Below are positions 1 through 26,258 of a DNA stretch of 64,000 nucleotides, in pieces. The position numbers and the translations under genes were made by a program. The notes below the pieces were generated by a model. That model saw nothing but the letters and a program-made list of their open reading frames with translations. It had not been told where the DNA came from and ran no database searches. This stretch comes from an uncultured Gammaproteobacteria bacterium. GTDB taxonomy: Bacteria; Patescibacteriota; Microgenomatia; Levybacterales; GWA1-39-11. Positions within the stretch are counted from its first letter, which is position 1. Each line of letters begins with the position of its first letter. Where the stretch lies: the NCBI GenBank assembly GCA_964427615.1, contig CAYRUR010000001.1, positions 119,303 to 183,302 on the forward strand, given 5' to 3'.

Positions 1-7
1 AAAAACC

Positions 8-289
8 GTGATTATTATCTATCTTATTTTTGTTATTGCAAATACTATGTTTTCGAGTAAAAAAGACATGGAAGGAATGGTAGGACTTTTGATTATGATA
101 GTAATTCTTCTGGGAGGAGTTCTTTTTGCCGGTGGAGGACCATTTCTTATGGAGCAGGTTTTGGATGTTTTGCATAATAAAGACGTAGATTTTGTTCTTG
201 AACGTTTGATGTATTTTCTTTTATTTCCGTTAGGAATGAATGGATTTTTCCTCTTACTGCCTTTTATATTCTCTCAAAAGAAGATTTAA
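8..289 (+). CDS. Small hydrophobic protein; the ORF may continue upstream of the window, and the first in-frame start in view is a GTG
   Basis: Open frame from the window edge encoding 2-3 hydrophobic helices. No recognisable motif. Confidence 0.25.
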   Translation: MIIIYLIFVIANTMFSSKKDMEGMVGLLIMIVILLGGVLFAGGGPFLMEQVLDVLHNKDVDFVLERLMYFLLFPLGMNGFFLLLPFIFSQKKI

Positions 290-322
290 GAATTTCCTAG
301 TAGGATAAGCGCCTATTCTGTA

Positions 323-658
323 CTATGTGTTGCTGGGAGGCGTGATGTTTTCTGGGCTAACTCCTGTAAGTACCGTAATGAAGTTGAAGATGGTGAAAGA
401 AAGAAGAATAAAGACAAGTCCAATGATAGCATAAGTAAGTGTTTTTTTTGCATTAGCTATTTGTTCTTCATCTCCTCGAGATGTAATATATTTGATGCCT
501 GAGAAAATGATGAAAAAAAGAGCTACGACTGCAGATGCGCCAAGTGCGAAGTTAATGACGTTGCTCAAAACGACCCAAATACACGAAAGCGTAGGTACTC
601 CTTCTATTGTGCAGCTGTCCCAACTCAAAGAAGTAAATGAAGCAAAAAAGCTGTCCAT
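323..658 (-). CDS. Small membrane protein with conjugative-pilin (VirB2/TrbC-like) topology, paralog 1
   Basis: It shares a C-terminal block with the next three ORFs: a hydrophobic helix, a charged loop (ITSRGDEEQIANAKKTLTYAIIG), then a second hydrophobic helix. This two-helix hairpin around a charged loop is the VirB2/TrbC pilin architecture. Confidence 0.5.
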   Translation of the reverse strand: MDSFFASFTSLSWDSCTIEGVPTLSCIWVVLSNVINFALGASAVVALFFIIFSGIKYITSRGDEEQIANAKKTLTYAIIGLVFILLSFTIFNFITVLTGVSPENITPPSNT

Positions 659-715
659 ACAATACTATTTATTCTAGTGCAAAGAGAGAAAAAACACAAT
701 ATATGCTAAAAGTCA

Positions 716-1135
716 TTAAGGTCTAGGCTTAATAACGTTGGGAGGATCAGGCTCTGTAAGCGAAGGGATTGTAAGACCAGTGATTCCGTTGCCAGTTATA
801 AGTACAAGAACAAAATTTAATATGACATAGGAAAGTGCAACGAGGACTAAGCCAATAATAGCAGCGATAATAGTTCCTCGTGCTGTTTTCACTTTATCGT
901 CATCTCCTCCTGAAAGAATCCATCTAATTCCTCCATATATTAAGAAGACAAGAGCAATGAGGATAGCGAGCACAAAAGCAGCGTTAACGACAAAACTAAC
1001 CAGTTGTTGCGGGGTTACATTAGTAGGTATGCGAAAGAAAAAATTTAGATCTCTGTCTTCTTGAGCAAAAGCTTGAGGCACGAAAAGTAAAGCAAGAGCA
1101 AGGCTAGCAAAAGTGCTTGATACTATTTTTCTCAT
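716..1135 (-). CDS. Pilin-like (VirB2/TrbC-like) small membrane protein, paralog 2, with signal peptide
   Basis: N-terminal signal peptide (ALALALLFVPQAFA|QE). Conserved block GGIRWILSGGDDDKVKTARGTIIAAIIGLVLVALS flanked by two transmembrane helices. Confidence 0.55.
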   Translation of the reverse strand: MRKIVSSTFASLALALLFVPQAFAQEDRDLNFFFRIPTNVTPQQLVSFVVNAAFVLAILIALVFLIYGGIRWILSGGDDDKVKTARGTIIAAIIGLVLVALSYVILNFVLVLITGNGITGLTIPSLTEPDPPNVIKPRP

Positions 1136-1243
1136 ATCTGTATTTATTAGATCATGTTTTCACGCACTTGTCAAGGAGGAATTGCTTAATGTTATTAGTT
1201 TATAACTGAAAGAGATATAAATATTGTCTAGTATTTTGATTCA

Positions 1244-1585
1244 TCAATTGGATTGAGCACCAAGGTTTGCAACGAAATCAATTCCTAACAGTGTACCTAC
1301 AAATTGTATGATAACAGCACTCAGGAGTATTACTACAATTCCAATAATTGCATATGTCAGTGTTTTACGTGCTTTTTTGACTTTTTCCTCATCTCCTTGA
1401 GAAGTAATCCAAAGAATTCCTCCCCAGATAAGAAATATTAAAGTAAGGATAATGCCAATTACGAAAAGAATGTTTACTCCGAAAGAAACCAGATTTTCTA
1501 AGGTAACTTCAGGCACTCCAGCAGGAGCTTCTACTTCTACCTGCTTTCCTTCCAATCCAGGTACTTTTAGTGCTAGATACTTCAT
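1244..1585 (-). CDS. Pilin-like (VirB2/TrbC-like) small membrane protein, paralog 3
   Basis: Conserved block GGILWITSQGDEEKVKKARKTLTYAIIGIVVILLS between two hydrophobic helices. Confidence 0.55.
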   Translation of the reverse strand: MKYLALKVPGLEGKQVEVEAPAGVPEVTLENLVSFGVNILFVIGIILTLIFLIWGGILWITSQGDEEKVKKARKTLTYAIIGIVVILLSAVIIQFVGTLLGIDFVANLGAQSN

Positions 1586-1595
1586 ATTTTATTTA

Positions 1596-2534
1596 TTATC
1601 GTGAAAATCCAGGGAGTTGTAAAATATCAACTCCAATAATTTCTAGTATAGCAAAAGAAAGAAGAATAAAGATAAACCCAATAATAGCTGAGGTAATTGT
1701 TTCTCTTGCGCCTGCAATTTTTTCTTGATCTCCCCGAGAAGTGAGGATCTTATATCCTGCGTATATAAGGAGTACGATAAGAGAGAATGCGGCTATACCT
1801 ATAATCCAGCGGAAAAGAGAAGATATGATACTGGTAGCAGAGGAAGCATCAACTTCCCCAATAGCGGTTTTACACTTGTGGTCTTCAGTACAAGGGATAA
1901 CATTTTCTGGAACTTTTATAGTAGGGTATAGAAAGGCCGTTGATTCAGGAGGAGGGACATGAATATTCTCCTTTAGATAGGTATTGCATGTCTCTTCTGA
2001 AGTGAAAATACCTTGATTGGAACCGCTGCAAATATTCGTGCATTGGCTATTGATAATCACATAACAGGCATCTCCAGAGGGTGGTTGATTACCAGATGAA
2101 TCAACAAGACTCATAGAGCTTTTCGTAGTGCATTGTCCAATAATATGCTTGTCGTCTCCTTTATTGTAAATATAAGCAGTGAATTTATAGGCTGAAGGAG
2201 GGAGTTCCGTAGAAAACTGAAAAGTAACTGGTTTGGCATCAGTATTACTATACTCCTTTGAGGCGAGCTCTGAGTAGGCAATATTGTTGTAAGTTGCAGT
2301 GCTTCCTCCAGCTATTTTTACAATCCCTTCTTCTTTAGTAGGAAACACTCTTACCTCATATGGCTTTCCGTATTGGGCATTAAAAGATGACTCAATGGTA
2401 CACACTTCCTCTGCAAAAGTTGTTCTTGGTAGAAGGGAAAAAAAAGAAATTACAGATAGAAAAGAAAAGACAAAAAGGTAGGAGAAGACTCTCATCATAC
2501 TATCATCGTATAGCAATAAGGATGTGAAAATCAA
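1596..2534 (-). CDS. Pilin-like protein with a large Cys-rich N-terminal extracellular extension, paralog 4
   Basis: The C-terminal ~90 aa carry the same block (YKILTSRGDQEKIAGARETITSAIIGFIFILLS). It is preceded by a ~200-aa domain with at least 9 Cys and a signal-peptide-like start (MMRVFSYLFVFSFLSVISFFSLLP). The true start is probably the internal Met near 2498. Confidence 0.5.
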   Translation of the reverse strand: MIFTSLLLYDDSMMRVFSYLFVFSFLSVISFFSLLPRTTFAEEVCTIESSFNAQYGKPYEVRVFPTKEEGIVKIAGGSTATYNNIAYSELASKEYSNTDAKPVTFQFSTELPPSAYKFTAYIYNKGDDKHIIGQCTTKSSMSLVDSSGNQPPSGDACYVIINSQCTNICSGSNQGIFTSEETCNTYLKENIHVPPPESTAFLYPTIKVPENVIPCTEDHKCKTAIGEVDASSATSIISSLFRWIIGIAAFSLIVLLIYAGYKILTSRGDQEKIAGARETITSAIIGFIFILLSFAILEIIGVDILQLPGFSR

Positions 2535-2540
2535 CAGCTA

Positions 2541-3965
2541 TCATCGTGAAAGCTTAATGCCTTTCCCCTTTATGGTGTGCAGATACTGAGGATTATTGGG
2601 GTCTGGTTCTATTTTTTTTCTCAGACGGTAGATGATTTGGTCCAGTGCTTGGTCCGTAACTCCTTCGCGACTGACGGTATCACTCCACACAGCTTCAATA
2701 ATCTCATTTTTCTCACATACTTTTTCTTTGTTGATGACAAGAAAACGCAGAAGTCTGAATTCAAGGGGAGTAAGTTGTTGAGTTAGATCCGCATCTCCTT
2801 TAAAAAGAATATTCTTCTCCTCATCATAATAAATTTCTTGTTTCTCCTTTTGTTTAACTGTTTGTATGTAGGATGCGAAAAAAGGAATGGTAAGTGTGTT
2901 ATTTTGCACAAGTTGTAACAGTTGTAATAACTGGATATCCTCATCTTTAACTCCTTTTTTTAGATGTAAAATATGATTTTTTTCATGGGGAGTCAAGAAA
3001 TCCCATAATTCCTCTAGCGCGCGTTGCATTTGTCTTCTTTGTAACAGAAAAGAGGTGAGATCTTCTGCTGGATTTTTTTTAGGAAGCACTGCTTCTACAG
3101 CAATACGGGTGAGTTTGTTATGTCCTCCTGTAAGAGACAGTATCTCTTTTTCTGTTGCATTATCAAGTTTTTTTTCCAGTATTTCTTCTAGATATTCAAT
3201 ACGGTAGGTAATGCCAACAGTGTTATTAATAGGTATAAAAACAGTATTGCCTGCAAGGTACTGATGAAATTCAGCAAACGTCATAGTATCAAGTAGCAAA
3301 TCTAAAGGTCTGGGAAGAGAAAAAATGCATGAAAAACGGTCATGCATAAGTTCTTTTAAAATGGTAAGGTTGATAAAAAACTGCTCTGTAACATCCGGCA
3401 AATATAACTCGAACCTATCAATTAAAAAGACAAGGGTTAACTCTTCCTCAAGCGCAAGGTATTCTACTGCGTCTTTTAGAGCGCGGAATAACACCAGTTC
3501 ATCATCAGCAAGCTGTAGCGCTTTTTTGAATAAGTCATCTACGAAAGCTGCTTCTTTTATTTTTCTGCGTTCTGTTAAAGAATGGGAAAGAGAGATGAGG
3601 AAAAATTTAGTAATGTCTTTCAGGGGCCTTTTATGTACTTCTGAAAAGTCCAAATACACAAAGTGAAATGAAGCAGAGCGTTCTTTCAAGTGGTAATCTC
3701 GTACTGTTCTATTGTAGGCAAGTAATTTTAGGAGGGTACTTTTTCCAGATCCAGGTACTCCGACAATTTGGCATGAAACACCTGTTTTGATAAAGCTCAG
3801 TGCTTTCTCAATTTCTCTGGCCATAGTATCTTCTGGAAATTGTGCTTCAAAGTATCTGTCTTGCATATCCTTATTATAACTGAATTGTGAGGTTGTTGTG
3901 AGGAAAGTATCAAGTACAAAGAATGTTATTTTTTTACAATGTGCGCATGAGAGAAAGATTGACAC
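2541..3965 (-). CDS. AAA+/P-loop NTPase fused to an OmpR/PhoB-type winged-helix DNA-binding domain (putative transcriptional regulator)
   Basis: Walker A GVPGSGKSTLLKLL near the N-terminus. The C-terminal ~100 aa match the OmpR-type trans_reg_C pattern (LTPLEFRLLRFLVINKEKVCEKNEIIEAVW...LDQIIYRLRKKIE...IKGKGIKL). The start may be the internal Met (MQDRYF, ~3866). Confidence 0.6.
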   Translation of the reverse strand: MSIFLSCAHCKKITFFVLDTFLTTTSQFSYNKDMQDRYFEAQFPEDTMAREIEKALSFIKTGVSCQIVGVPGSGKSTLLKLLAYNRTVRDYHLKERSASFHFVYLDFSEVHKRPLKDITKFFLISLSHSLTERRKIKEAAFVDDLFKKALQLADDELVLFRALKDAVEYLALEEELTLVFLIDRFELYLPDVTEQFFINLTILKELMHDRFSCIFSLPRPLDLLLDTMTFAEFHQYLAGNTVFIPINNTVGITYRIEYLEEILEKKLDNATEKEILSLTGGHNKLTRIAVEAVLPKKNPAEDLTSFLLQRRQMQRALEELWDFLTPHEKNHILHLKKGVKDEDIQLLQLLQLVQNNTLTIPFFASYIQTVKQKEKQEIYYDEEKNILFKGDADLTQQLTPLEFRLLRFLVINKEKVCEKNEIIEAVWSDTVSREGVTDQALDQIIYRLRKKIEPDPNNPQYLHTIKGKGIKLSR

Positions 3966-6900
3966 TAGCTAAAACAATATCATATGCTGAATACAGTATG
4001 GAGCCAGCTGAAGTCTATAATGAGTCTCATGTGTCAGAAAGTGGAAAACTTTCCTCTAGTGGTACTTCTCATGAACATCAAAAGGGAAAAAGACCCTTTC
4101 TTCAAGTAGTTGCTCGAGATGGAGAGGCTGTAAGTGCTACAGGACAAGATAGCTTAGATGATGTAGCCGGTCCTGAACCTATTCTTTTTCCAAGCTACCT
4201 TCAAGAAGAACCCTCACCACTTTCTATAAATTCTCAAGAAAAAGGAAAGGTAAAACACGACCTCACACCTCATGAATTATTTGAAGAAGAAAGGTGGGAA
4301 GAATCTTCTTTAGAAGAGAAAATAAGAGAACGTGTGAGTCAAGTAAAAAGTAAAAGAGAAATGGAAAGCTACCTCAGTAAAAATGGTCCTTTAGTAAATG
4401 AAATGCGAAAAGCTATTCAAGAATATGCTAGTTTGCGACTTAATAATATAAGAGAGATAGATCGTATGACCGCAGAACTAACTGGAAAATTTTACCAACA
4501 GCTGGAAGAGGCAATTCATTCTATTGATGGTACTTTACTGGAAGAAGAATGGTTGCAAGAAGCTGAATCAAAACTAAATCCCTTTATTTACGGACTGCTG
4601 CATGCAAAAAATGAAGTAGAGGCATTGAGAATGGAGACAAATGTCTCCAATCCTTCCCCTGAGCCTAGTGGTAGTTTAAGTGCTACTACATCTATGCAGC
4701 CAGAGGAAGAAGGACCTGCGGGTGGTGGGGGAGCTGGTGGAGGAGAAGGAGGCGGCGGAGGAGCTGGTGGAGGATTTGAAGGAGGCTTTGATTATTGGTA
4801 TATCAGCCCTGAAAGAAAAAGGAGAAATCCTGAAGATATAGAGGATTTAGCGGTGGGAATTATGTTTTCAGACCCTCAAAAATGGGGAAGTCTTATGTAT
4901 GTGCGCGAGCGCTATGAAAGTGCTCCAGGAGAACGTGATGGAGCTATTGAAATAGTAGAAAATGGTACAACAAGAATATTAACGCAAGGAGAACATCCGA
5001 TGTTTGATACTGTTTATATACCAAATGAGGGAGAAAGAATTACCTTGAAAGATGGAGATCAAGTTATAGATGAAGAAGTTGGAGCGTCAACTGAACAAGG
5101 TAGAGTAAGAGGAAAGACTACAGAGATAGAAGTTTTAGAAATGAATAGATATATTATGCATGATGGACAAAAATATGAGGTTGGAACTTATGAAATAAGA
5201 AGAATTAAGGGAACTAACGATGTTGTGGATATTGATCCTCGAGATATAAAAGGAAAAATTACAGAGGTATTTAACAAGGATAACTTTTTAAGGTGGGATA
5301 GAGAGCGGGTAGTAACCATTGATATGCAAGATCCTTTTGCTCCGCAAAAATTTTATTCTGAAGTAGATGTGAGTGATCCTAACTGGCTGCGGGGGCATTT
5401 TCCAATGGGACAACTTATGAAAGAAGACAGATGGTGGTTGCTTAAAAATGGAGAAAAAGTTACCGATTTACAGGATGCAACTGTCGACGTGCTTTCTGGA
5501 GCTGGAAATATTCTTAATGGAGGAAAAGAATATAACTTTGTAATGCCTAAAGAATCAGAACTGGTAAAGTATCTCGATGGGGTATATTCTCAGAATACAT
5601 GGACACGAGAATCGGGTGGTATTAGTTATCTTCGTAGGATTTTTGAAATGCCACAAAATTTAAGTGATCACGGAGAATATGATGAGGTTGGGGGAGATAT
5701 TAAAGTTGGGAGTGCTATTAGAAGCATGACTTTGCATTGGTACTACTCGACAGATTTTGAAAAACTAGTGGAGTTATATGGTGAAGATTATACTTTTTTT
5801 AAACGTTCTTATTGGGAAAATGCGCTAAGCAAAGTTGCAAAACAAACAAGTTTTAAAAGTGACTTATCAGAAGAAGAGCTAAGAGCATCAGGTGATTGGG
5901 GTGGGCTTGTTCAATACGATATAAATACCTTTTTCAAAGGGGATGAGGATACTATGGATATCTTTAAAAGAAACAATGATGGGTCATTTGTATTAGAGAA
6001 TGGGAAAAAAGTTGTAGATCCTCAGAAGGCTATGGAAATAGTTAAAAAAATTAACATCTTTGTTCCTCAAAGACCTGACGCAGATAAGTTGGTTGTGAGA
6101 GATGTTTTAAAAAATGGTATTGGAGAATTTTATGGCCTTCAAGATGATAAAGACAACCTCAATTTCGCTGAACTAATCGCTTTTCGGATTTGTTATCCAA
6201 CAGGAATTAATGCCAGGAATGATATTGTACATGCAGGCATGGACGCTTGGGTAAAGTGGCAACGTACTTTTTGGTACCGTAATAAGCAATTGGATGGAGA
6301 TAGAGGAGGATCTGCCGGAAATTACTATAATATGCAAATTTTTAGACAACTAGGAGCAGATTTTTTTACAGGGATTGATACATTAACGGGTAATTCAATT
6401 CTCCAACTTATGGAGGAGGCAGAAAAAGAAGTTAGAAGAGATAGTGAAAATAATAGAGGTGTGAGGACACAAAAAATTTTGGATACCCAAAAAAAGTTGC
6501 GGTTCTCAGCTGATTCTCAGAGACAATTTCTTTCAAATCAAATTAAAAATGCTGCGGGAATGTACGAGAGTCTCACTGACCTAAAAGAAATAAGCTTCCA
6601 AAAATATTCAAAACTCGTTGAGGGTAGACTGGAAATAGATGAAGCAGCGTTTAGTGAAGACCTTAAAGGAGGAGTAATAAAACCTTTGCGTTATATGATT
6701 AGTACTTGGAAACAGCTTGATTTTGGAGAAGAAGAGAGAACAATGATTCCAATAATCAACGAGAAAGGAGAAGCAAAGGAGGGAGAATATAAGACAGTAA
6801 CAAGGCTTGAAGCATATTTTGGAGAAGCAACAGCAGCAGTTTTTAGGAATGATAAGGCCTGGGATTTTGGAGATGCATTAAAAGGGAGAATAGACAGTCT

Positions 6901-7522
6901 TTCCGAGGCGGATTCACGTAAGGCAATAGAAGATTATCTGTCATTTCTTGTTAACCCTAATCCCGAAAAAGATGAAGATAAAGGAAAAGCAGATAAAACG
7001 GCTAAAAAATTAGCATCAGCATACTCTCAAGAATTTATAGGAAAAGATTTTTCAGAACTCACTAGCATTGAGAGAAAGCAACTTTTAACTAAATTAACTG
7101 AAACAAAAGGAATGCTTTCCATTGGAGAAGCAAAAGTAGTAAATGATGTACATAGAACTCATCTTTTTAAATATGCAGTGGCATTTTACGCAGGTACTCA
7201 ATTGCTTGCTCATAGAAAAAATGTTAGCCGCAATTATTTTGAAAAATACGACATTATAGAAAGTCGTACCTTTTTACGTCTTCTTGATTCTATTCCTGGT
7301 AAAGCAATTTTTGATGAAGATGATCTGAGAAATACGCGAGTTGATGGAAATTTCTTTGGAAAAGATATGTATGGAAGGGACTATATGGAGTTTATTAAAG
7401 CACTGTCTAATACTACGACAGGTAAATTATGGACTGGTCACTTAATACTTTTGCTTTTAGGTGCAATGAGAGAAGCTTTTGGAGAGTCTACAGAAGAACT
7501 TACAAAAGGAATTGCTGCTTAA
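3923..7522 (+). CDS. Very large (about 1170-1200 aa) soluble protein of unknown function with an internal poly-Gly tract
   Basis: Uninterrupted 3.6-kb ORF with no transmembrane segments and acidic, coiled-coil-like N-terminal regions. Low-complexity GPAGGGGAGGGEGGGGGAGGGFEGGF tract near nt 4715-4790. A start at 3923 would overlap the upstream gene by 43 nt, so the ATG at 3998 (MEPAEV) is the more likely start. Confidence 0.6.
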   Translation: MLFFYNVRMRERLTLAKTISYAEYSMEPAEVYNESHVSESGKLSSSGTSHEHQKGKRPFLQVVARDGEAVSATGQDSLDDVAGPEPILFPSYLQEEPSPLSINSQEKGKVKHDLTPHELFEEERWEESSLEEKIRERVSQVKSKREMESYLSKNGPLVNEMRKAIQEYASLRLNNIREIDRMTAELTGKFYQQLEEAIHSIDGTLLEEEWLQEAESKLNPFIYGLLHAKNEVEALRMETNVSNPSPEPSGSLSATTSMQPEEEGPAGGGGAGGGEGGGGGAGGGFEGGFDYWYISPERKRRNPEDIEDLAVGIMFSDPQKWGSLMYVRERYESAPGERDGAIEIVENGTTRILTQGEHPMFDTVYIPNEGERITLKDGDQVIDEEVGASTEQGRVRGKTTEIEVLEMNRYIMHDGQKYEVGTYEIRRIKGTNDVVDIDPRDIKGKITEVFNKDNFLRWDRERVVTIDMQDPFAPQKFYSEVDVSDPNWLRGHFPMGQLMKEDRWWLLKNGEKVTDLQDATVDVLSGAGNILNGGKEYNFVMPKESELVKYLDGVYSQNTWTRESGGISYLRRIFEMPQNLSDHGEYDEVGGDIKVGSAIRSMTLHWYYSTDFEKLVELYGEDYTFFKRSYWENALSKVAKQTSFKSDLSEEELRASGDWGGLVQYDINTFFKGDEDTMDIFKRNNDGSFVLENGKKVVDPQKAMEIVKKINIFVPQRPDADKLVVRDVLKNGIGEFYGLQDDKDNLNFAELIAFRICYPTGINARNDIVHAGMDAWVKWQRTFWYRNKQLDGDRGGSAGNYYNMQIFRQLGADFFTGIDTLTGNSILQLMEEAEKEVRRDSENNRGVRTQKILDTQKKLRFSADSQRQFLSNQIKNAAGMYESLTDLKEISFQKYSKLVEGRLEIDEAAFSEDLKGGVIKPLRYMISTWKQLDFGEEERTMIPIINEKGEAKEGEYKTVTRLEAYFGEATAAVFRNDKAWDFGDALKGRIDSLSEADSRKAIEDYLSFLVNPNPEKDEDKGKADKTAKKLASAYSQEFIGKDFSELTSIERKQLLTKLTETKGMLSIGEAKVVNDVHRTHLFKYAVAFYAGTQLLAHRKNVSRNYFEKYDIIESRTFLRLLDSIPGKAIFDEDDLRNTRVDGNFFGKDMYGRDYMEFIKALSNTTTGKLWTGHLILLLLGAMREAFGESTEELTKGIAA
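4714..4791 (+). repeat. GGn/GGA low-complexity tract encoding a poly-Gly linker inside the 1199-aa ORF
   Basis: ggtgggggagctggtggaggagaaggaggcggcggaggagctggtggagga: short direct GGN/GCT repeats that are slippage-prone. Confidence 0.6.
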
Positions 7523-7570
7523 AAGAGAGATAGAGAGTCTATTCTTAGATTATCTTTCTTCTTCTCTTGT

Positions 7571-9397
7571 CTAGATCGGGCTCCGTTCTCTTCTACTAGA
7601 TCTACGATTTAGTAGTCTTCTTTTTTCATCATCTGTAAGATTTGGCAACCTTCTTATTTCCTCCTCAGTATATGGCTGCAAATCATCTCGCAGACCTAAC
7701 CCCCAATTTCTTAATGAACTGCTATTGCTGCGTGAAAGACGTTGAGCTAACGGTCGCTTTATTCTTTCATCATATGCAGTACTGAGAGGGCCTGTAGCTA
7801 CACCCTCTTTATTTCTTGCAAAGAGCACATTCTTAGGGATTCCTGCAAATGGTTTTACTACTTGTGCTCCAATCCCTAAGCTGTTTGGAATAGCTTGTGC
7901 ATATTTAAGTGAAGGAGTATTAAGCTTGTCTTTGATCATGTTAATAACTTCTGGGGTGATAAGAATAGTTGCCATACCAAAAAGAGCTGATAATGCTTCT
8001 GGAGCACCGGGATTACCAATAAGTGGAGGAGTGAAGTACTCTTCTCCTGGAGCAAAGGCGCTCATAAGCACCTTTGCAATCAAAAACATAAATATAGTTG
8101 CTGGAAATACAAGTAAGTACGTGATGATATATTTTAGCCATGCTCCGAAACCTAGACCTGAGTTAGGAATAATTCCCATGGCAATCCAAAAAGGAGAGAG
8201 TATAACTGCTAGAAGTACTCTGATGTAAGACGTAAGGAGTCGGAACCAAATTCGTACAAGTGTTATAAATATAGCTATAGATACAATGAAAAACATAATC
8301 ATTCCTCCTAATATCCCGGCCACACTACCAATAACATTGACGTCCTCGGTACAATCCCACATCGCATCAAGACTAATACCAGTAACCCGGGAGATAATAC
8401 CTCCATCTGATTCAATATGTTGAATTACACAATCTTGGTATACTGGACTGACTGACTGAGGTATGAGAAATATAATACGAGTAACAGTTTGGGTAATGGT
8501 ATTATGAAAAATTCCTAAATTATTTATTACATTGGAGATTACTTCTCCTGTACCCAAAGCTATCTTAAAAGGTATTATGAAAAATCCTATTCCGAGTTCG
8601 CTATCGGTGAAAGGAAGGGGAAGATTGTATAGGTGATTGGCAAAGCCAAAAGGAGTGTTAAAAGCATATTTAAGCATATTTCCTAATGCTCCTGATTCAT
8701 CAAGGGGTGAGAAAGTAGCAAATAAGAGCAGTAATAACACCCACATCATGTCTATCAGAAATCCTGCAATGGGAAAGGAAAAGGTGACAAGCACAAGCGT
8801 AATAATAATTTTAGGAATTTGATTTTGAACAGCCATTACTGCTCTATCATTGAGTTTAAATCTGAACATAATGCCAAGGCCAATGATAACTACAATAAGG
8901 CTAAAAAGAAGATACACAATATTTCTAAACTGTATCCAAATCTTCTGAATAGGTTTTAAGCCTTCAAACCCTATTCCTCCCTCTTCTGCAGCTTGTGCTT
9001 TTTTAGAAAACCCAAAGTTGTGAGAAAGGTAGGTGGCGTAATCATTGCTAGATATAGGGAAGTTGTACGTCATTCCTATAAGTTGTCCCATTTGATTGAC
9101 AGCACCACCATTATTATCTACATAGGTAATCTTCTTTGTTTGAGGATCAACTCCAAGGCATTTTCCGTTAGGTGAAATAGGATCTGCACCTATTACAAAA
9201 CAAGTATAAGTAGAAAAGAACTCAATGAATAAGCTCTGGGTGAATGTGTGGAGGTTTTTTGGTACCGATGCGTCTACATTGGGCTCCAGGTAGCTTGATG
9301 ACTCTATGTTTTGTGCGCTCACTGGAAAAACAAAAAACTTAGTAAAAAGAAGCGTAAAGACAAAAAAGGTCAAAATGGGCAATAACAACTTTTTCAT
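7571..9397 (-). CDS. Polytopic membrane protein with an N-terminal extracytoplasmic domain and a basic C-terminal tail; possible VirB6/TrbL-like channel component
   Basis: Signal peptide, then a ~130-aa Cys-containing soluble region, then at least six predicted transmembrane helices, then an Arg-rich disordered C-terminus (RRLLNRRSSRRERSPI). This architecture matches VirB6-family proteins. No diagnostic motif was seen, so the assignment is topological only. Confidence 0.4.
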   Translation of the reverse strand: MKKLLLPILTFFVFTLLFTKFFVFPVSAQNIESSSYLEPNVDASVPKNLHTFTQSLFIEFFSTYTCFVIGADPISPNGKCLGVDPQTKKITYVDNNGGAVNQMGQLIGMTYNFPISSNDYATYLSHNFGFSKKAQAAEEGGIGFEGLKPIQKIWIQFRNIVYLLFSLIVVIIGLGIMFRFKLNDRAVMAVQNQIPKIIITLVLVTFSFPIAGFLIDMMWVLLLLLFATFSPLDESGALGNMLKYAFNTPFGFANHLYNLPLPFTDSELGIGFFIIPFKIALGTGEVISNVINNLGIFHNTITQTVTRIIFLIPQSVSPVYQDCVIQHIESDGGIISRVTGISLDAMWDCTEDVNVIGSVAGILGGMIMFFIVSIAIFITLVRIWFRLLTSYIRVLLAVILSPFWIAMGIIPNSGLGFGAWLKYIITYLLVFPATIFMFLIAKVLMSAFAPGEEYFTPPLIGNPGAPEALSALFGMATILITPEVINMIKDKLNTPSLKYAQAIPNSLGIGAQVVKPFAGIPKNVLFARNKEGVATGPLSTAYDERIKRPLAQRLSRSNSSSLRNWGLGLRDDLQPYTEEEIRRLPNLTDDEKRRLLNRRSSRRERSPI

Positions 9398-9477
9398 AAG
9401 GTAGGAGAATTTTTAGTATTCATAGATAAGTATGGAGAAAAAAGAGGAGTAAAGTCAAGAATGGGAAAAGACTTTCG

Positions 9478-10083
9478 TTGACACTTTTTCCTATAATAGA
9501 GTATAGTATCAAAAATATGGTAAAAGGGGCTTTATTTTTAAGTATTGTAACCTTCTTCTTTTTGGTACAGCCTATTTTTGCCCAAAATACGCTAGATGCC
9601 ACAGAAAGTGCTGCGCCTTATGCCTCTGGTTCTGCAGTTAAAGAAGTTTCTGTTCAGTACGAATTGCCTTATCCAGGACTTTTACCAGATCATCCTCTTT
9701 ATTTCTTGAAAATGACACGGGATAAAATTGTGGGTTTATTGATCAATGATCCTTTAAAAAAAGCGGAATTTAATCTTTTAAACGCTGATAAGCGGATGCA
9801 TGCAGGAGTACTGCTAGTAAAAAAGAAAGAATATGATCTGGCAGTTACTACTATTTCTAAAAGTATCAATTATGTTGAAGAAGCACGGGTAGCGGAAATG
9901 AAGGCAAAGCAAGCCGGAAAATACACGCCTCCTTTTGAATCAAAGCTTGAAACAGCACTGGCAAAACATACAGAACTAACACAGATGCTTGTACAAAACA
10001 TGGACAAAAAATATGTGCAACAATTTAAAAATGAGTTGAAAAGAATGCGAGAATTGCAAAAAAGAATGGGAAAAAAGCATTAA
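9478..10083 (+). CDS. Secreted or membrane-anchored hypothetical protein
   Basis: Signal-peptide-like stretch (MVKGALFLSIVTFFFLVQPIFAQN, probable start near 9517) followed by a helical, Lys-rich region. Unknown family. Confidence 0.45.
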   Translation: MTLFPIIEYSIKNMVKGALFLSIVTFFFLVQPIFAQNTLDATESAAPYASGSAVKEVSVQYELPYPGLLPDHPLYFLKMTRDKIVGLLINDPLKKAEFNLLNADKRMHAGVLLVKKKEYDLAVTTISKSINYVEEARVAEMKAKQAGKYTPPFESKLETALAKHTELTQMLVQNMDKKYVQQFKNELKRMRELQKRMGKKH

Positions 10084-10336
10084 CTCTTCTATTTTGAGCC
10101 TGCCTTTTTGAATTGTCCTTTGGTTATTTATTTTCTTTGTTGAAAAGTGCATATGAGTTTCTCCATAGAAATAAGAGGAAAAATGATTCAAAAGAATAAT
10201 AAAAATGTACGTTTTTAGTTGCCAGAAATTGCTTTTTCTTTGTCAGAGCTCTTACATAATCAAATTGAAGCTAAAGCAAAAAATGATATAGTTTGTTATA
10301 TTGACTTAACAGATTTAGTGTTCTACTATTGTCTCT

Positions 10337-10352
10337 GACACTAGATGTAAAA
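10337..10352 (+). promoter_or_regulatory. Possible NrdR-box-like site upstream of nrdR-nrdJ
   Basis: acactagatgtaaaaag resembles the first half of the NrdR box consensus (acaCwAtATaTwGtgt). The match is weak and partial. Confidence 0.2.
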
Positions 10353-10417
10353 AGAAAATTTACATTTGGTAAAAGCTCTTTAATTAAGAAAGAAGCACCT
10401 TTAAAAATCGTAATACT

Positions 10418-10867
10418 ATGCTTTGCCCTTATTGCAGAAAAAATGGAACTGAAGTCGTTGAGACACGAATTGCCGAAGACGGAACAAATATTAGAAGAAG
10501 AAGATCATGTTCTTCCTGTGGCAAACGGTTTACTACTTATGAAAGAATTGAGAATGTAACATTAGTAGTAAAGAAAAAAGACGGAAGACGTGAGCAATTT
10601 GATAGAGATAAGTTACGAGCAGGAGTGATCCGGGCATGTGAGAAAACAAGTGTTTCAATTGATAAAATTCATGATATAGTAGATGTTATTGAAAGAGAAC
10701 TACGTAACGGTGAATCAGTAGAGGTTGAAAGTAGAAAGATAGGACAGCTTACGGCTGTTAAACTGAAAAAAGTAGATAAGGTAGCATATATTCGATTTGC
10801 AAGTGTTTTTAAGCGTTTTGTTGATTTAGACGATTTTGAGAAAGAATTAAAAAGATTATTAAAATAA
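10418..10867 (+). CDS. nrdR: Transcriptional repressor NrdR (Zn-ribbon plus ATP-cone)
   Basis: N-terminus MLCPYCRKNGTEVVETRIAEDGTNIRRRRSCSSCGKRFTTYERIE is a canonical NrdR zinc ribbon. It sits immediately upstream of an RNR gene. Confidence 0.9.
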   Translation: MLCPYCRKNGTEVVETRIAEDGTNIRRRRSCSSCGKRFTTYERIENVTLVVKKKDGRREQFDRDKLRAGVIRACEKTSVSIDKIHDIVDVIERELRNGESVEVESRKIGQLTAVKLKKVDKVAYIRFASVFKRFVDLDDFEKELKRLLK

Positions 10868-10868
10868 T

Positions 10869-13283
10869 ATGAAACTTGAAGGATTATCAGAAAAAGTATT
10901 TTTAGACAGATATGCTCTCAAAGATAAAAAGGGCAACCCTATCGAAAAAGACCCTCGCCAGATGTGGAGGAGAATTGCTAAGGCAGTAGCAGAGCAAGAA
11001 GAAGGAGAAAGTAAAAAGATTTGGGAAAAAGAATTTTATGAGGCTCTAAAGGGTTTTAAGTATGTTCCTGGCGGAAGAATCCATGCAGGCGCGGGAACTG
11101 GGTATCAAGTTACTTATTATAATTGTTTTGTAATTCCTTCTCCAAAAGATTCACGAGGTGGTATTATTGATACCCTCAAGCAAATGGTTGAAATTATGGC
11201 ACACGGTGGTGGTGTTGGTATCAACCTCTCCTCTCTTCGTCCTCGCGGTTTTCGAGTTAAGAAAGTAAATGGATTCTCCTCTGGTCCTTGTAACTGGGCA
11301 GAGCTGTTCTCTATTGCTACCAAAGATATTATTCAACAGGGTGGTACTCGTCGAGGTGCACTTATGTTAATGCTTTGGGACTGGCATCCTGATGTAGAAG
11401 AATTTATTACCGTAAAACAAGACTTACTCCGTATCAATGGAGCTAATCTTTCCGTATGTGTGTCTGATAAATTCATGGATGCAGTTGAAAAAGATGGAGA
11501 CTGGGATCTGGTTTTCCCTGATAAAGATGATCCAGATTATGATGAAAAATGGGATGGAGACCTAGAGGCTTGGAAAAAGCTTGGTAAAAAAGTAATAGTA
11601 CACAAAACAGTAAAGGCACGCAAGATATGGGATCTGATTGCTGAAGCTGCTTGGAAATCAGCAGAGCCAGGAGTAGTCTTCATGGAGCGCTACAACAAGC
11701 TATACAACAACTGGTACTGGAACAGCATCAATTGTGTAAATCCATGTGGAGAAGAAGGACTTCCACCATGGGGAGTATGTAACTTGGGTTCTATCAACCT
11801 TTCTGCTTTTGTCAAAGGGTATGAAGTAGATAAAAAAGGAGAGTTTGATTTTGAGACATTAAAGAAAGTAGTGAGAGTAGGAGTGAGATTCCAAGACAAT
11901 GTAGTGAGTATGGATCCATATATTTTTGAAGGAATTCGCAAGACACAGCTTGAGGGAGAAAGAAGAATTGGTCTTGGTACCATGGGTTTGGGAGATGCAC
12001 TAATTAAATTACACTTACGTTATGGTTCACCTGAAGCATTGGAGTTTATAGATGAAGTGTATAAGCTTATTAGAGACGAAGCATACAGAGCGTCATCTGA
12101 GATTGCCAAAGAAAAAGGAGCATTTCCAAAGTTTGATAAAGAACTTTTCCCACAAGGAGCATTTATCAAGCAACTTCCAAAAGACATCCAGAAGATGATT
12201 AAAGAGCAAGGGATTCGCAACTCGCTTCTTTTGATGCAAGCACCAACAGGGTCAATCTCTTTGATGGCTAACACCACTTCTGGTATAGAGCCGGTATATG
12301 AATTTGAATTTATCAGGAGAAGTAGAATTGGGGAGCATGTAATCAGACACCATTTGTATGATGAATGGTACAAAGTACATGATAAAGAACTGGAAGAAGG
12401 AAAAATACAAAGACCGGATTACTTTGTCTCTGCAAATGATCTTACTCCAGAAGAGCATGTGGAAACACAGGGTATCATCCAAAAATATGTGGATGCTTCT
12501 ATCTCAAAGACAGTAAATGCACCTAAGACGCATACTGTAGAGGATGTAAAAAGACTATATACCTTAGCTTACAAATTAGGTTGTAAAGGGATAACCTATA
12601 TGAGAGAAGGATCACGAGTCGGCGTATTAGAAAGAAAAGAGGACAAAAAAGAAGAAGTAAAGGAAGAAATAAAGCAATTACCACCTATTATGCGCAGGCC
12701 AATGGTCATGCAAGGAGTAACATATAAAACGCAAACACCACTGGGGAGTACCTTTATTACCATCAATGTAGACAAGGATGGTAATCCTTTTGAAGTCTTT
12801 ATTAATGCTGGGAAATCAGGTTCTGATGTCATGGCTATGGCAGAGGCATTAGGGCGCATGATTTCATTTGCTTTAAGAATGCAGGGTCCTATTGATTCAC
12901 GGGAAAAAATAGAAAGAATTATTGCCCAAATGACGGGTATCGGAGGTGCAAGAACAGTTGGCTTTGGTCCTAATAGAGTGAGATCTTTGCCTGATGCTGT
13001 AGCCAAGATCCTCGCTGATCACTTTGAATTTAAGGTAAATGGAAAAGTTACTGACGTAAAAAAGAATATAAAAGCTGATGCTATGGAGCCAGCTAGTCTT
13101 ACAAATGGACACGCAGCAGCAAATGAACATGCAGTGATGGCCTTACAACCATCTTTATTGCACGCTGAATCTGCTTCTTCTACAAATGATAGTTTTGATA
13201 TCTGTCCTGATTGTGGAACATCAGGTTTAGCACACGAAGAAGGTTGTATAAAATGTTACTCATGTGGATATTCCGCATGTTAA
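10869..13283 (+). CDS. nrdJ: Class II (adenosylcobalamin-dependent) ribonucleotide reductase with a C-terminal Zn-ribbon
   Basis: NrdJ-type N-terminus (VFLDRYALKDKKGNPIEKDPRQMWRRIAKAVA). Active-site region NPCGEEGLPPWGVCNLGSINL. C-terminal CPDCG...CIKCYSCG zinc ribbon. Length 804 aa. A start codon 2 nt after the nrdR stop indicates an operon. Confidence 0.85.
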   Translation: MKLEGLSEKVFLDRYALKDKKGNPIEKDPRQMWRRIAKAVAEQEEGESKKIWEKEFYEALKGFKYVPGGRIHAGAGTGYQVTYYNCFVIPSPKDSRGGIIDTLKQMVEIMAHGGGVGINLSSLRPRGFRVKKVNGFSSGPCNWAELFSIATKDIIQQGGTRRGALMLMLWDWHPDVEEFITVKQDLLRINGANLSVCVSDKFMDAVEKDGDWDLVFPDKDDPDYDEKWDGDLEAWKKLGKKVIVHKTVKARKIWDLIAEAAWKSAEPGVVFMERYNKLYNNWYWNSINCVNPCGEEGLPPWGVCNLGSINLSAFVKGYEVDKKGEFDFETLKKVVRVGVRFQDNVVSMDPYIFEGIRKTQLEGERRIGLGTMGLGDALIKLHLRYGSPEALEFIDEVYKLIRDEAYRASSEIAKEKGAFPKFDKELFPQGAFIKQLPKDIQKMIKEQGIRNSLLLMQAPTGSISLMANTTSGIEPVYEFEFIRRSRIGEHVIRHHLYDEWYKVHDKELEEGKIQRPDYFVSANDLTPEEHVETQGIIQKYVDASISKTVNAPKTHTVEDVKRLYTLAYKLGCKGITYMREGSRVGVLERKEDKKEEVKEEIKQLPPIMRRPMVMQGVTYKTQTPLGSTFITINVDKDGNPFEVFINAGKSGSDVMAMAEALGRMISFALRMQGPIDSREKIERIIAQMTGIGGARTVGFGPNRVRSLPDAVAKILADHFEFKVNGKVTDVKKNIKADAMEPASLTNGHAAANEHAVMALQPSLLHAESASSTNDSFDICPDCGTSGLAHEEGCIKCYSCGYSAC

Positions 13284-20858: not shown

Positions 20859-22712
20859 TTAGAGTGAAAAAGTATAAATTTTGGAGTTGCTTACAACATA
20901 TAACGTGTGATTTGGTTCATCTACTGCAAATGAGGTGGCATTTTTAAAAATATCTGAAGTATATTGTTTGGCAAACGAACCACTTTTTTGGATAGATACC
21001 ATTCGTTTTCCAGAGGGGTCAAGTACATAAAGATTTGCATAATCAACATCGGTGTAAATACTGCTTCCTTTGCCAATAGAGGTGGGAAGCCCTTGTATAG
21101 AGAAAGCATCTTTGCTGCCTCGTGTATATTTTTGAATACTTCCATCATCTAAAAGAACCCAGACAGAGGCATCAATACTAAATGATACGGGATTTTTAGA
21201 AAAATCAGGTTCTTGGCTAAAATAATCAGTGTCATTATATGCTTCAGGAATAAATTTTTTAATAGTATTTTGGCGCGTATCCAGCACGTAAATGTTATTT
21301 CCAAAGGTACTAATACTTTTTGGAGCTTGTAGGTCTTCTATAATTGTTTCGTTTTCTTTTTCATTCTTTTCTTGTTTGATAACAGAGTCATTAGTAAGCA
21401 TGTAAAAATAGTCTTCATCTGCACTAATATCTACCACCCGTGTTGATTCACCTTCAAAAAATTGTTCTATTTCTCCGCTTTTAGAAAGTAAAACAGCAGA
21501 AGTATTATTTGTTCCTGTGGCAATAATACTGCCCCCTTTAATAGTAATATGCCCAACTTGTTTTATTTTTTCCTGAGATGGATCAAAAAAGAGTTTTTCT
21601 CCTCCCAGTTGTTCTCCTCCTCCTAGTTTTTGAATCTCAGCATTTACTTTTTCAAGGAGGGTATCTAATTGTTCTCGTTCAGGAGTGCCTTGAGGGAATT
21701 TGTCCTGTTCTGCAAGGAGTATTTTTTTGGCTTCATACAGTGTTTCAAGAGCAAGTGGTTTATTTAAAGATGCAAGCGCTATTGCTTCATCCAACTGTTG
21801 CTGGGTAGGTGCAAGAATATGGGCAAACTCTTCTTGTAACTGTTTTTTTTCTTTATTCATGTTTTCATGTATAATTCCGCCTATTAATATACTTAAAAGA
21901 ACAGCGATACCAATACCAATAAGCACATTTTTTTTCAAAAGCACCTCTTTTTTTGGTATATGAAGGTTTTTGATAAAAGAAGAAAGAGTAGCAGGATGAG
22001 GTATGCGCTCTTTAAGGGTGGTGATAAAAGATGGTTTTAGGGCTTCTGGTTTTTCTTGTTTTTGCTCTTCGTCTTTTTCTACTTCTTCGAAAGTTTCCTC
22101 ATCTGCTAAATAGCTTGCATCGTGGCTTTGAATTTGCAGGACTATAGCTGCTTCTGTGCCTTGTGGTTCTGTACTGATAAGCGGAGCAAGTGTTTCTGCA
22201 ATATCCAGGATGTTGATAGTTTTGGTAAAGGTTTGATAGAGGGAGGGATCTATCTTCTGGGCAAAGCCTGGCGTTTGCAGAAAAAGCATATCGTTGTGAC
22301 GTAGCTCTCCTGAAAAGCCAGTAATGCTTTGTGGTTCTGCTTCTGCAATAATTCCAATAGTCTCATCTCTTTTTAAGAGTACTTTTCCGGCTGATGAGAT
22401 AATAATATAAGCAACTCCTTCAATGATCGTTACCAAAACAAGTGAGTGCTCTATTTCAGCAGGGATAATAGATACAGTATTTTCTACTGCTTGTTTTATG
22501 GTAGATAGATTTTTTTCGTCAATTGCAAAGTATTCTCGTTGTAGTTTTTCAAGGACTTCTTTTCCTAAAGTAGTGGGTTGGATATCTGATTCACCCTGTT
22601 TTTTAAGGCTGACTACAACAAACACATGTAACGTGGAAAAAGCCTGCGCCCAGGTTTTTTCTGTTGTATTTGAAACGAGTTTTTCGTGAACAATAGTATA
22701 GTTTTGGTTCAT
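20859..22712 (-). CDS. Hypothetical bitopic membrane protein with a C-terminal beta-propeller-like repeat region
   Basis: One central transmembrane helix (VLIGIGIAVLLSILIGGII), a coiled-coil segment, and repeated YVLD / YMLTND / YVVSN beta-strand motifs. Unknown family. Confidence 0.5.
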   Translation of the reverse strand: MNQNYTIVHEKLVSNTTEKTWAQAFSTLHVFVVVSLKKQGESDIQPTTLGKEVLEKLQREYFAIDEKNLSTIKQAVENTVSIIPAEIEHSLVLVTIIEGVAYIIISSAGKVLLKRDETIGIIAEAEPQSITGFSGELRHNDMLFLQTPGFAQKIDPSLYQTFTKTINILDIAETLAPLISTEPQGTEAAIVLQIQSHDASYLADEETFEEVEKDEEQKQEKPEALKPSFITTLKERIPHPATLSSFIKNLHIPKKEVLLKKNVLIGIGIAVLLSILIGGIIHENMNKEKKQLQEEFAHILAPTQQQLDEAIALASLNKPLALETLYEAKKILLAEQDKFPQGTPEREQLDTLLEKVNAEIQKLGGGEQLGGEKLFFDPSQEKIKQVGHITIKGGSIIATGTNNTSAVLLSKSGEIEQFFEGESTRVVDISADEDYFYMLTNDSVIKQEKNEKENETIIEDLQAPKSISTFGNNIYVLDTRQNTIKKFIPEAYNDTDYFSQEPDFSKNPVSFSIDASVWVLLDDGSIQKYTRGSKDAFSIQGLPTSIGKGSSIYTDVDYANLYVLDPSGKRMVSIQKSGSFAKQYTSDIFKNATSFAVDEPNHTLYVVSNSKIYTFSL

Positions 22713-26105: not shown

Positions 26106-26142
26106 AACTTTAGTAAACCAGGAATTACCGAGAGTGTCAAGT

Positions 26143-26215
26143 GTGCGCCCGGATGGATTCGAACCATCGACATCTACTTTATAAGAGTAGCGCTCTGCCC
26201 CTGAGCTACGGGCGC
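26143..26215 (-). tRNA. tRNA with anticodon UAU (Ile, AUA-decoding), CCA not encoded
   Basis: Minus strand GCGCCCG-UA-GCUC-AGGGGCA-GAGC-G-CUACU-CUUAUAA-AGUAG-AUGUC-GAUGG-UUCGAAU-CCAUC-CGGGCGC-A. Perfect 7-bp acceptor, U8, GG in the D-loop, U33 and A37, and a TUCGAAU T-loop. Confidence 0.6.
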
Positions 26216-26258
26216 CCAACGTGGGGATATTATATCAAATAACGTAGGCAAAAAAACG

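Follow-up and report, generated by a model that had tools for sequence, protein, structure and literature searches.

A chromosomal type IV secretion locus of Levybacteria with a VirB6-like membrane protein, a P-loop NTPase–winged-helix regulator and a fast-evolving giant orphan protein

We analyzed a stretch of 64,000 nucleotides (nt) from an uncultured bacterium (positions 119,303 to 183,302 of contig CAYRUR010000001.1, assembly GCA_964427615.1), hereafter the window, and in particular three genes that adjoin an array of type IV secretion system (T4SS) pilin genes at its left end. The annotation of the window was based on a mechanical list of open reading frames (ORFs) and the public gene calls, combined with scans against Pfam, NCBIfam, PHROGs and PADLOC. 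The presence and position of the three ORFs, as proposed in an initial annotation of this DNA, were borne out by the ORF check: 2541-3965 (minus strand, 474 aa), 3923-7522 (plus strand, 1199 aa) and 7571-9397 (minus strand, 608 aa). They are predicted to encode a P-loop NTPase fused to a winged helix-turn-helix (wHTH) domain (the regulator), a large orphan protein (the giant), and a VirB6-like polytopic membrane protein, respectively. Positions 1-9397 are one arm of a chromosomal T4SS locus typical of Levybacteria (class Microgenomatia, Patescibacteria or candidate phyla radiation). The window has a G+C content of 36-40% and the gene content of a typical reduced Patescibacteria genome (NrdR, ribonucleotide reductase, GroEL, LepA, MurJ, FemAB and UvrD), and the nearest homologues of all three proteins were found in metagenome-assembled genomes (MAGs) labelled Levybacteria, Levyibacteriota or 'Patescibacteria group'.

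Read along the minus strand, the locus consists of the VirB6-like gene, the giant gene on the opposite strand, the regulator, four VirB2-like pilin genes and a 232-aa membrane ORF. Two gene starts differ from those of the mechanical ORFs. The regulator most likely starts at the ATG at 3866, because the public gene call and the length of its ~440-aa homologues agree on this point; the resulting 441-aa protein (2541-3866, minus strand) is encoded by the first gene upstream of the pilins on the same strand. The start of the giant is most likely the ATG at 3947 (M9 of the ORF that opens at 3923), since the public gene call agrees with a conserved N-terminal leader, and the gene then encodes 1191 aa (3947-7522, plus strand). 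With these corrected starts the regulator and giant genes are divergently arranged with an 80-bp spacer and no overlap, and the giant gene is convergent with the VirB6-like gene.

The source contig continues to the left of the window with genes for a 490-aa PrgI-like (VirB3) protein (28.1 bits against a threshold of 27), a 209-aa TraC-like protein of the TrsD type and a 756-aa VirB4 with DUF87, AAA_10 and P-loop_TraG domains, followed by four unknown genes and dnaN. Neither the genes of the locus nor the scanned ORFs of the window contain a relaxase domain. The T4SS of Patescibacteria has been described as a set of pilin arrays, TrsD and PrgI encoded near dnaN/dnaA (Quinonero-Coronel et al. 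2025, PMC12102498), and it is essential in Southlakia epibionticum (Wang et al. 2023, PMC10633639). Both the composition and the location of our locus match the 2025 description, and the system is therefore one that has already been described. The initial annotation had regarded it as compact and possibly uncharacterised; it is neither, as it corresponds to the Patescibacteria T4SS of these two studies and its core machine genes sit past the left edge of the window.

All four pilin ORFs (323-2534, minus strand) exceed the threshold of the T4SS_pilin family PF18895, with E values from 9e-10 to 8e-14. They encode VirB2-like T4SS pilins of 111 aa (323-658, minus; PF18895 E 8e-14, TrbC E 2e-3), 139 aa (716-1135, minus; PF18895 E 2e-11) and 113 aa (1244-1585, minus; PF18895 E 3e-12), and a VirB2-like pilin-domain protein with a long N-terminal extension (1596-2534, minus; 312-aa ORF, 300 aa in the public call; PF18895 E 9e-10, NF045849 E 3e-10). 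The family NF045849, which comprises pilin-like proteins of mycoplasma integrative and conjugative elements, also matches all four ORFs, the 139-aa one weakly (E 2.8e-4). The sole long direct repeat in the first 10.5 kb lies within this array: 89 nt at 396-484, 1317-1405 and 1654-1742, with 69-79% identity, encode the conserved C-terminal transmembrane (TM)/GD motif of three of the four pilin paralogues, which is consistent with an old tandem duplication. The 3' part of the 232-aa ORF with two TM segments (1-289, plus strand) parts the pilins from the PrgI-like, TraC-like and VirB4 genes and has a homologue in 17 related loci.

For the analysis of synteny we used a sample of 80 related loci, mostly from Levybacteria, out of 513 found, and restricted the counts to loci with sufficient flank, namely at least 4.5 kb downstream (63 loci) or at least 8.5 kb downstream (53 loci). 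The gene order of the module is conserved across the 80 loci: the three genes keep their tight synteny with the VirB2-like pilin array and with the VirB3-like, TrsD-like and VirB4 genes that lie beyond it. A convergent ORF of 742-1732 aa follows directly after the VirB6-like gene in 63 of 63 loci. Among the 53 loci with the longer flank, a pilin is present in 52, at least three pilins in 47 and the regulator in 42, and the PrgI-like, TraC-like and VirB4 genes come next in every locus with sufficient flank. The same order was found in three distant annotated genomes, sometimes with an additional bAvd-like gene or a toxin-antitoxin insertion, and the adjacency is independently confirmed by the locus tags M1615_04720/04725 (the giant beside the VirB6-like gene) and C4577_01150/01160. 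The association of the three genes with pilin and ATPase genes, as initially suggested, is thus retained in related genomes and gives no ground for refuting the proposed module.

On the other side of the VirB6-like gene, DUF5667 and NrdR genes are kept in just 19 of 57 loci, so the linkage of the giant is much tighter than the background gene order. This observation bears on the possibility that the giant is functionally unrelated to the T4SS and owes its place to conserved gene order near the replication origin, which we regard as improbable. Housekeeping flanks (DUF5667, NrdR, ribonucleotide reductase and SmpB) do recur in several loci, and the giant has no homology to any secretion component. 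However, its adjacency in all 63 loci is far stricter than that of the DUF5667/NrdR flank, it is wedged between two T4SS-linked genes, it shares the 80-bp control region with the regulator of the pilin operon, and mobile insertions (an AbiEii pair, GIY-YIG genes and bAvd-like genes) have entered the locus without displacing it.

These insertions vary between genomes. A DUF6922/AbiEii toxin-antitoxin pair separates the regulator from the pilins in one genome (L006, 16253-17139), and GIY-YIG genes are scattered through other related loci; since the order of the other genes is intact, the locus evidently tolerates insertions. Genes of ~120 aa encoding four-helix-bundle proteins of the 23S_rRNA_IVP/bAvd type (L005, 17015-17371 and 9571-9936; L006, 14502-14882; L007, 15695-16060) occupy the position between the giant and the regulator in other genomes and are absent from the window.

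The 608-aa membrane protein (7571-9397, minus strand) consists of a signal peptide (residues 1-28), an ecto-domain of ~125 aa with invariant C66 and C80, hydrophobic helices at about 153-183, 193-233, 352-390, 387-413 and 420-451, a variable central loop (~235-350) and a ~150-aa cytoplasmic tail with an Arg-rich end. The hydropathy scan gives about 5-6 helices and agrees with the secondary structure of the AlphaFold2 (AF2) model, which points to a polytopic topology with at least five TM helices. At least 348 homologues were found, with 31-41% identity, all of them unnamed proteins of Patescibacteria. Pfam TrbL (PF04610) is matched by 2 of 41 family members (best E 1.4e-7), one of which, P0035, shares 39% identity with the query and reaches 32.0 bits over its C-terminal TM block, where the threshold is 25.9. 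In a structure comparison against 48,164 chains, the top two matches were TrwI/VirB6 and DotA, both of them T4SS channel proteins, with a gap to the rest; the predicted fold is thereby similar to solved VirB6.

Several results count against this assignment. The 608-aa query itself has no match in Pfam or NCBIfam, its AF2 model is moderately confident (predicted local distance difference test score 66.6), an hhalign comparison of the family profile with R388 TrwI was not significant (probability 0.1, E 0.53), and a sequence-profile search of the PDB with the VirB6-like family found no VirB6. The failure of these sequence-profile links indicates that the divergence is extreme, and it fits the remark that VirB6 is 'scarce' in Microgenomatia, 'suggesting extreme sequence divergence' (PMC12102498). 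That the protein is instead an unrelated transporter or permease with a helical bundle that just happens to look like VirB6 seems very improbable: TrwI/VirB6 and DotA are the best two of all compared chains, two family members independently reach or approach the TrbL threshold, the gene is strictly syntenic with the pilins and VirB4, and no transporter family appears among the Pfam and NCBIfam matches of the family. The VirB6/TrbL-like character given in the initial annotation is thus upheld by the TrbL matches of relatives and by the structure comparison, and the check for homology to an unrelated transporter revealed none. We assign a VirB6-like function, that of a strongly diverged channel subunit of the inner membrane, to the 608-aa protein with high confidence, and membership in the VirB6/TrbL family with reasonable confidence.

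The regulator carries an OmpR/PhoB-type wHTH in its C-terminal 75 residues, where Trans_reg_C (PF00486) is matched at 69.2 bits against a threshold of 26.2 (E 3e-19, residues 397-471 of the 474-aa ORF). Sequence matches in the PDB cover the wHTH alone and include PhoB, KdpE, RegX3, MtrA, VirG, ToxR and similar proteins. The N-terminal P-loop region has weak matches to AAA_16, NPHP3_N, nSTAND3 and NACHT (E 4e-4 to 2e-2), all of them under the Pfam thresholds (for AAA_16, 21.4 bits against 32.6), and a few homologues have precomputed matches to PF13191, PF14516 or PF24883. Invariant positions among 28 family members are P38, G39 and G41 of Walker A and D150 of Walker B; S43 is almost invariant. 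As far as these data allow, the protein can be described as a putative 'STAND/AAA_16-like P-loop NTPase' with an OmpR/PhoB-type DNA-binding domain. The initially proposed fusion of an NTPase with an OmpR-type domain therefore stands, whereas the label 'AAA+' is too specific, given that the NTPase matches are sub-threshold. No Response_reg match, that is, no receiver domain with a phospho-acceptor Asp, was found in the regulator, which is thus not a two-component response regulator. Members of the family are ~440 aa long, 43-54% identical and annotated merely as 'wHTH domain-containing', and its named matches belong to Levybacteria or unclassified Patescibacteria. The regulator gene ends 6-42 nt from the first pilin gene on the same strand, which makes their co-transcription likely. 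A role in anti-phage defence of the STAND type was considered and rejected, since the PADLOC matches are at the level of the P-loop only and the synteny with the T4SS is strict.

The 80-bp divergent control region (3867-3946) was subjected to a promoter scan. A promoter of the regulator is predicted on the minus strand, with TTGATA at 3913-3908, an 18-nt spacer and CACAAT at 3889-3884; on the other side, TACAAT at 3935-3940 lies 6 nt ahead of the giant ATG. The motif CTTGATA occurs in 28 of 47 regulator upstream regions compared to 2 of 76 controls, and TTACAAT is located at a fixed distance of 25 nt downstream of its first base, which corresponds to a TTGATA-N17-TACAAT arrangement. In related loci this arrangement stops 7-15 nt before the regulator ATG, and the window has the variant TTGATA-N18-CACAAT.

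The conserved N-terminal leader of the giant, MRERLTLAKTISYAEYSM (3947-4000, plus strand), follows the pattern M-K/R-E...E-L-T-x5-7-[ST]-[YTK]-[LA]...G-x-I-F-M-P-E-P-G. Its Leu-Thr pair is encoded by TTGACA (3959-3964), and the same hexamer is present in 60 of 73 loci. The frame of the TTG-ACA codons is open in 57 of these 60 loci, compared to 0 and 5 for the other two frames, which shows that the leader region is coding. Upstream ATGs preceded by TAnnnT are in frame in 38 of 40 cases. The hexamer at 3959-3964 is followed 17 nt on by TAnnn[TA], a perfect sigma-70-like -35/-10 arrangement inside the open frame, and on the regulator strand it reads TGTCAAT, which resembles a PhoB/OmpR half-site; judging from its sequence, the site could be an embedded promoter or an operator of the regulator. 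We rejected TTGACA-N17-TAnnnT as a promoter of the giant with a start at M26 as the sole explanation, in view of the open frame in 57 of 60 loci and the in-frame upstream ATGs.

Beyond the leader, the N-terminal ~430 residues of the giant are non-conserved, and BLAST coverage of homologues begins at about residue 400. This part includes the 26-residue Gly/Ala/Glu tract noted initially, GPAGGGGAGGGEGGGGGAGGGFEGGF (residues 264-289, 4712-4789, plus strand), which lies in a short GGN-rich repeat region. The tract is real; a G/A/E/S tract of at least 8 residues is found in just 9 of 74 giants (73 positional counterparts and the window's own), and it is therefore a lineage-specific element of low complexity. 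The conserved core comprises residues ~440-980 (5240-6862, plus strand), where model confidence exceeds 90. Near-invariant core residues are N454, W458, R460, G596, D611, N711, G761, D767, K778, R794, G799, N800, K920, R923 and R939.

The C-terminal ~110 residues of the giant are also conserved and contain a hydrophobic helix, KLWTGHLILLLLGAM (residues 1168-1182, 7424-7468, plus strand), with a short tail behind it that contains Lys. In a comparison of 72 giants, hydrophobicity was far higher in the C-terminal 32-residue segments than in segments of the protein body (median 0.55 versus 0.13, Mann-Whitney p 1e-36), and 24% of the C-terminal segments are TM-like, compared to 0 of 2193 body segments. 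The helix is a candidate membrane tether or C-terminal recognition element. An N-terminal hydrophobic segment is lacking in 72 of 74 giants, and an internal TM segment was found in 0 of 74.

The counterparts of the giant were taken by position from 80 related genomes, and 73 of the 74 giants (the window's own and its 73 counterparts) fall into one BLAST component, with one singleton. An exhaustive HMMER search identified 170 cluster representatives with 24-34% identity, 117 of them at E<=1e-10. Nearly all are 600-1900 aa long, with few short fragments, and all align to query residues ~440-980. The length of the ORF, 1,199 codons in DNA of 37% G+C, and its 170 homologous cluster representatives show that it did not arise by chance. 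A word-index search with the whole giant returned the self-match only. Scans of the giant and 42 homologues against Pfam, NCBIfam, PHROGs and PADLOC revealed no recurrent family, and the giant itself has no Pfam or NCBIfam match. Sequence-profile searches of the PDB, both full-length and from residue 290, returned only low-complexity and coiled-coil proteins at N-terminal profile positions, and the predicted fold, as modelled, had no match among solved or viral structures.

The giant is by far the fastest-evolving gene of the locus. Its conservation relative to the window copy is 0.06 bits per residue, compared to 0.46-0.82 for the VirB6-like, regulator, pilin, PrgI-like and TraC-like proteins of the same genomes, and it is detectable by BLASTP in 29 of 80 loci. 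Because bAvd-like genes adjoin the giant in other genomes, we weighed a diversity-generating retroelement target as the source of this variability and rejected it: no direct repeats of at least 40 nt are present in the giant gene of the window or of L005, L006 and L007, and no reverse transcriptase domain was found among the neighbours of the giant in three annotated genomes.

A possible partner of the T4SS is encoded elsewhere in the window. The 799-aa VirD4-type coupling-protein-like ATPase (26259-28658, minus strand) has matches to TrwB_AAD_bind (E 7e-8), DUF87 (E 2e-7) and TraG-D_C (E 2e-6), carries an N-terminal extension of ~370 residues and lies ~17 kb from the VirB6-like gene. In Patescibacteria, genes for type IV coupling proteins are usually located far from virB4 (PMC12102498).

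Taken together, these data suggest a T4SS arm with a VirB6-like subunit, an NTPase-wHTH regulator and a giant that is most likely a substrate or host-interaction protein, an explanation that we consider rather probable; this estimate applies jointly to the Levybacteria T4SS arm, the regulator and the giant as a T4SS-associated factor. According to this explanation, the regulator would tie transcription from the 80-bp divergent region to the binding or hydrolysis of a nucleotide; from this region, the regulator and the pilins would be transcribed as a unit to one side and the giant gene to the other. The giant would be made in the cytoplasm as a dedicated T4SS-associated factor, as the absence of a Sec signal suggests, and would be attached to the membrane by its hydrophobic C-terminal helix. 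It would then be handed to the VirB4/VirB6 channel as a substrate or host-interaction protein, its most likely role, possibly with delivery through the distantly encoded VirD4-like ATPase. A role as a substrate or in host contact is favoured because the giant evolves so much faster than any other gene of the locus and because a coupling-protein homologue is also present in the genome. Its roughly tenfold faster evolution than that of the machine components fits host-specific selection, and the lack of a Sec signal argues against a classical adhesin or a VirB5-like tip protein. The features that bear on a putative export of the giant are indirect, namely the missing Sec signal, the hydrophobic helix within its conserved C terminus, the fast evolution and the linkage to the machine. 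A bolder version, in which the giant is the founder of a new-fold family and a dedicated, host-specific cargo or contact protein that passes through VirB4/VirB6 to the host, is tentative and in our estimate rather unlikely; as such a cargo, it would be recognised via the conserved leader or the C-terminal module.

The main rival for the role of the giant is a lineage-specific machine component, that is, a cytoplasmic, membrane-tethered structural or enzymatic part of the T4SS, such as a docking platform or an energising or processing factor at the VirB4/VirB6 base. We judge it unlikely on the whole, though several features speak for it. The giant is present once and in the same position in all 63 loci, its ~530-aa confidently folded core has near-invariant D, R, K, N and H residues, and its C-terminal hydrophobic helix, in a protein lacking a Sec signal, is like a tail anchor; moreover, ~1000-aa lineage-specific proteins are also found in Saccharibacterial T4SS loci. 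However, the giant is far less conserved than the recognised machine parts (0.06 versus 0.46-0.82 bits per residue), its N-terminal ~430 residues and several insertions are unalignable, it is transcribed separately from the opposite strand, and the large proteins of Saccharibacteria are membrane proteins or hydrolases, with no soluble ones among them.

Several further observations weigh against the combined explanation. A universal, single-copy protein with a ~530-residue core and invariant charged residues would fit a machine component or an enzyme equally well, and only about half of the C-terminal helices of the giants meet TM-like or amphipathic cut-offs. The regulator was undetected in 11 of 53 loci, and a generic promoter and terminator scan of positions 1-10500 was not above chance (29 found versus 30.7 expected). 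Finally, gene order in Levybacteria is partly conserved anyway, and adjacency alone is no proof of function.

The remaining features of the window concern the surroundings of the genes discussed above. The VirB6-like gene is flanked by a gene for a DUF5667 secreted protein (9478-10083, plus strand), and the same flank includes NrdR and a ribonucleotide reductase with a C-terminal TSCPD/zinc-ribbon region (10418-13283, plus strand). Neighbours of the VirD4-like ATPase encode a SpoIID-domain protein (23635-25365) and a 617-aa orphan (20859-22712). A gene for tRNA-Ile with the anticodon TAT (26143-26215, minus strand) lies inside the mechanical ORF 25398-26219, and the upstream part of this ORF is therefore probably no gene. 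Dozens of contigs with a Levybacteria-type locus (L011, L018, L022, L026, L027 and others) are titled 'uncultured Gammaproteobacteria bacterium', and the L071 and L079 records carry, one each, the titles Eisenbacteria and Lysobacterales; the taxonomy in the record titles of these third-party annotation co-assembly MAGs seems to be wrong.

This kind of system is already known; what appears to be new is its arrangement in Levybacteria, the families of the regulator and of the giant, and the assignment of a VirB6 in Microgenomatia. The function of the Patescibacteria T4SS has been described as completely unknown (PMC11665869), its cargo and control in this group are likewise unknown (PMC10633639, PMC11665869, PMC12857230), and it is essential for epibiotic growth in the sole species where this could be tested (PMC10633639). 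The VirB6-like family, which spans 513 related loci of a large uncultured class, makes a strong candidate for the subunit that was reported to be scarce in Microgenomatia. A P-loop-wHTH regulator at the head of the pilin genes offers a handle on the regulation of the T4SS, and the giant (~1,000-1,700 aa, universally linked and very fast-evolving) is an obvious candidate for a substrate or a lineage-specific machine part. If it is cargo, it would be the first concrete candidate substrate of a Patescibacteria T4SS, and an NTP-sensing wHTH switch would explain the coordinated expression of pilus and cargo. If the giant is unrelated to secretion, the result shrinks to a better annotation of a known system.

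One of the closest known systems is the chromosomal T4SS at the locus SEML1_0006-0019 of Southlakia epibionticum. Both loci have a VirB4, apparently of the Patescibacteria or mating-pair formation (MPF) FATA-like type, together with TrsD/TraC-like and PrgI/VirB3-like genes, a divergent array of VirB2-like (PF18895) pilins and a VirB6-like membrane protein; both are located beside dnaN/dnaA, contain no relaxase and have the coupling protein encoded elsewhere. The Saccharibacteria locus includes a 1088-aa 'extended' VirB6, a 998-aa membrane protein, a VirB8-like NTF2 protein and large lysozyme and peptidase proteins, and has neither a P-loop-wHTH regulator nor a soluble giant. In contrast, the Levybacteria locus has a 608-aa VirB6-like protein, a regulator that heads the pilins and an orphan giant on the opposite strand. 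There is no mention of the regulator or the giant in the main text of the 2025 survey (PMC12102498).

The Gram-positive T4SS of the MPF-FATA type (pCF10 Prg/Pcf, pGO1 Trs) share with the Levybacteria locus a PrgI-like VirB3, a TrsD-like protein and VirB4. Outer-membrane core components are lacking in both, which is consistent with a monoderm envelope. However, the Gram-positive systems have no VirB2 pilins and use Sec/LPXTG adhesins such as PrgB, whereas the Levybacteria locus has four pilins, no relaxase and no recognisable adhesin, and is chromosomal and apparently immobile. Within the VirB6/TrbL family (TrwI, VirB6 of A. tumefaciens and DotA of Legionella), the 608-aa protein is 12% identical to R388 TrwI (PDB 7o3v chain F) and is distinguished by a cleavable-type signal peptide and a Cys ecto-domain, as well as by its variable central loop and the ~150-aa Arg-ended tail.

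The regulator has the winged helix in common with OmpR/PhoB response regulators such as VirG and differs from them in the absence of a receiver domain. Regulators of the SARP/AfsR type combine an OmpR-type wHTH with a STAND-like P-loop module, and by analogy the Levybacteria protein may be comparable to them, as both would join these two elements. The domain order is reversed in the Levybacteria regulator, with the NTPase at the N terminus and the wHTH at the C terminus, and no BTAD or TPR region is present.

Substrates with C-terminal recognition modules are known from several T4SS, among them the XVIPCD effectors of Xanthomonas, the Bartonella effectors with a BID domain plus tail, and the Dot/Icm substrates with C-terminal signals. 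The giant may be analogous to these proteins in that it is large and fast-evolving, lacks a Sec signal, is encoded beside the machine and has a conserved C terminus. It differs from known T4SS effectors in that neither its sequence nor its fold resembles any known effector domain or signal, and from typical effectors in being single-copy and universal and in possessing a conserved N-terminal leader.

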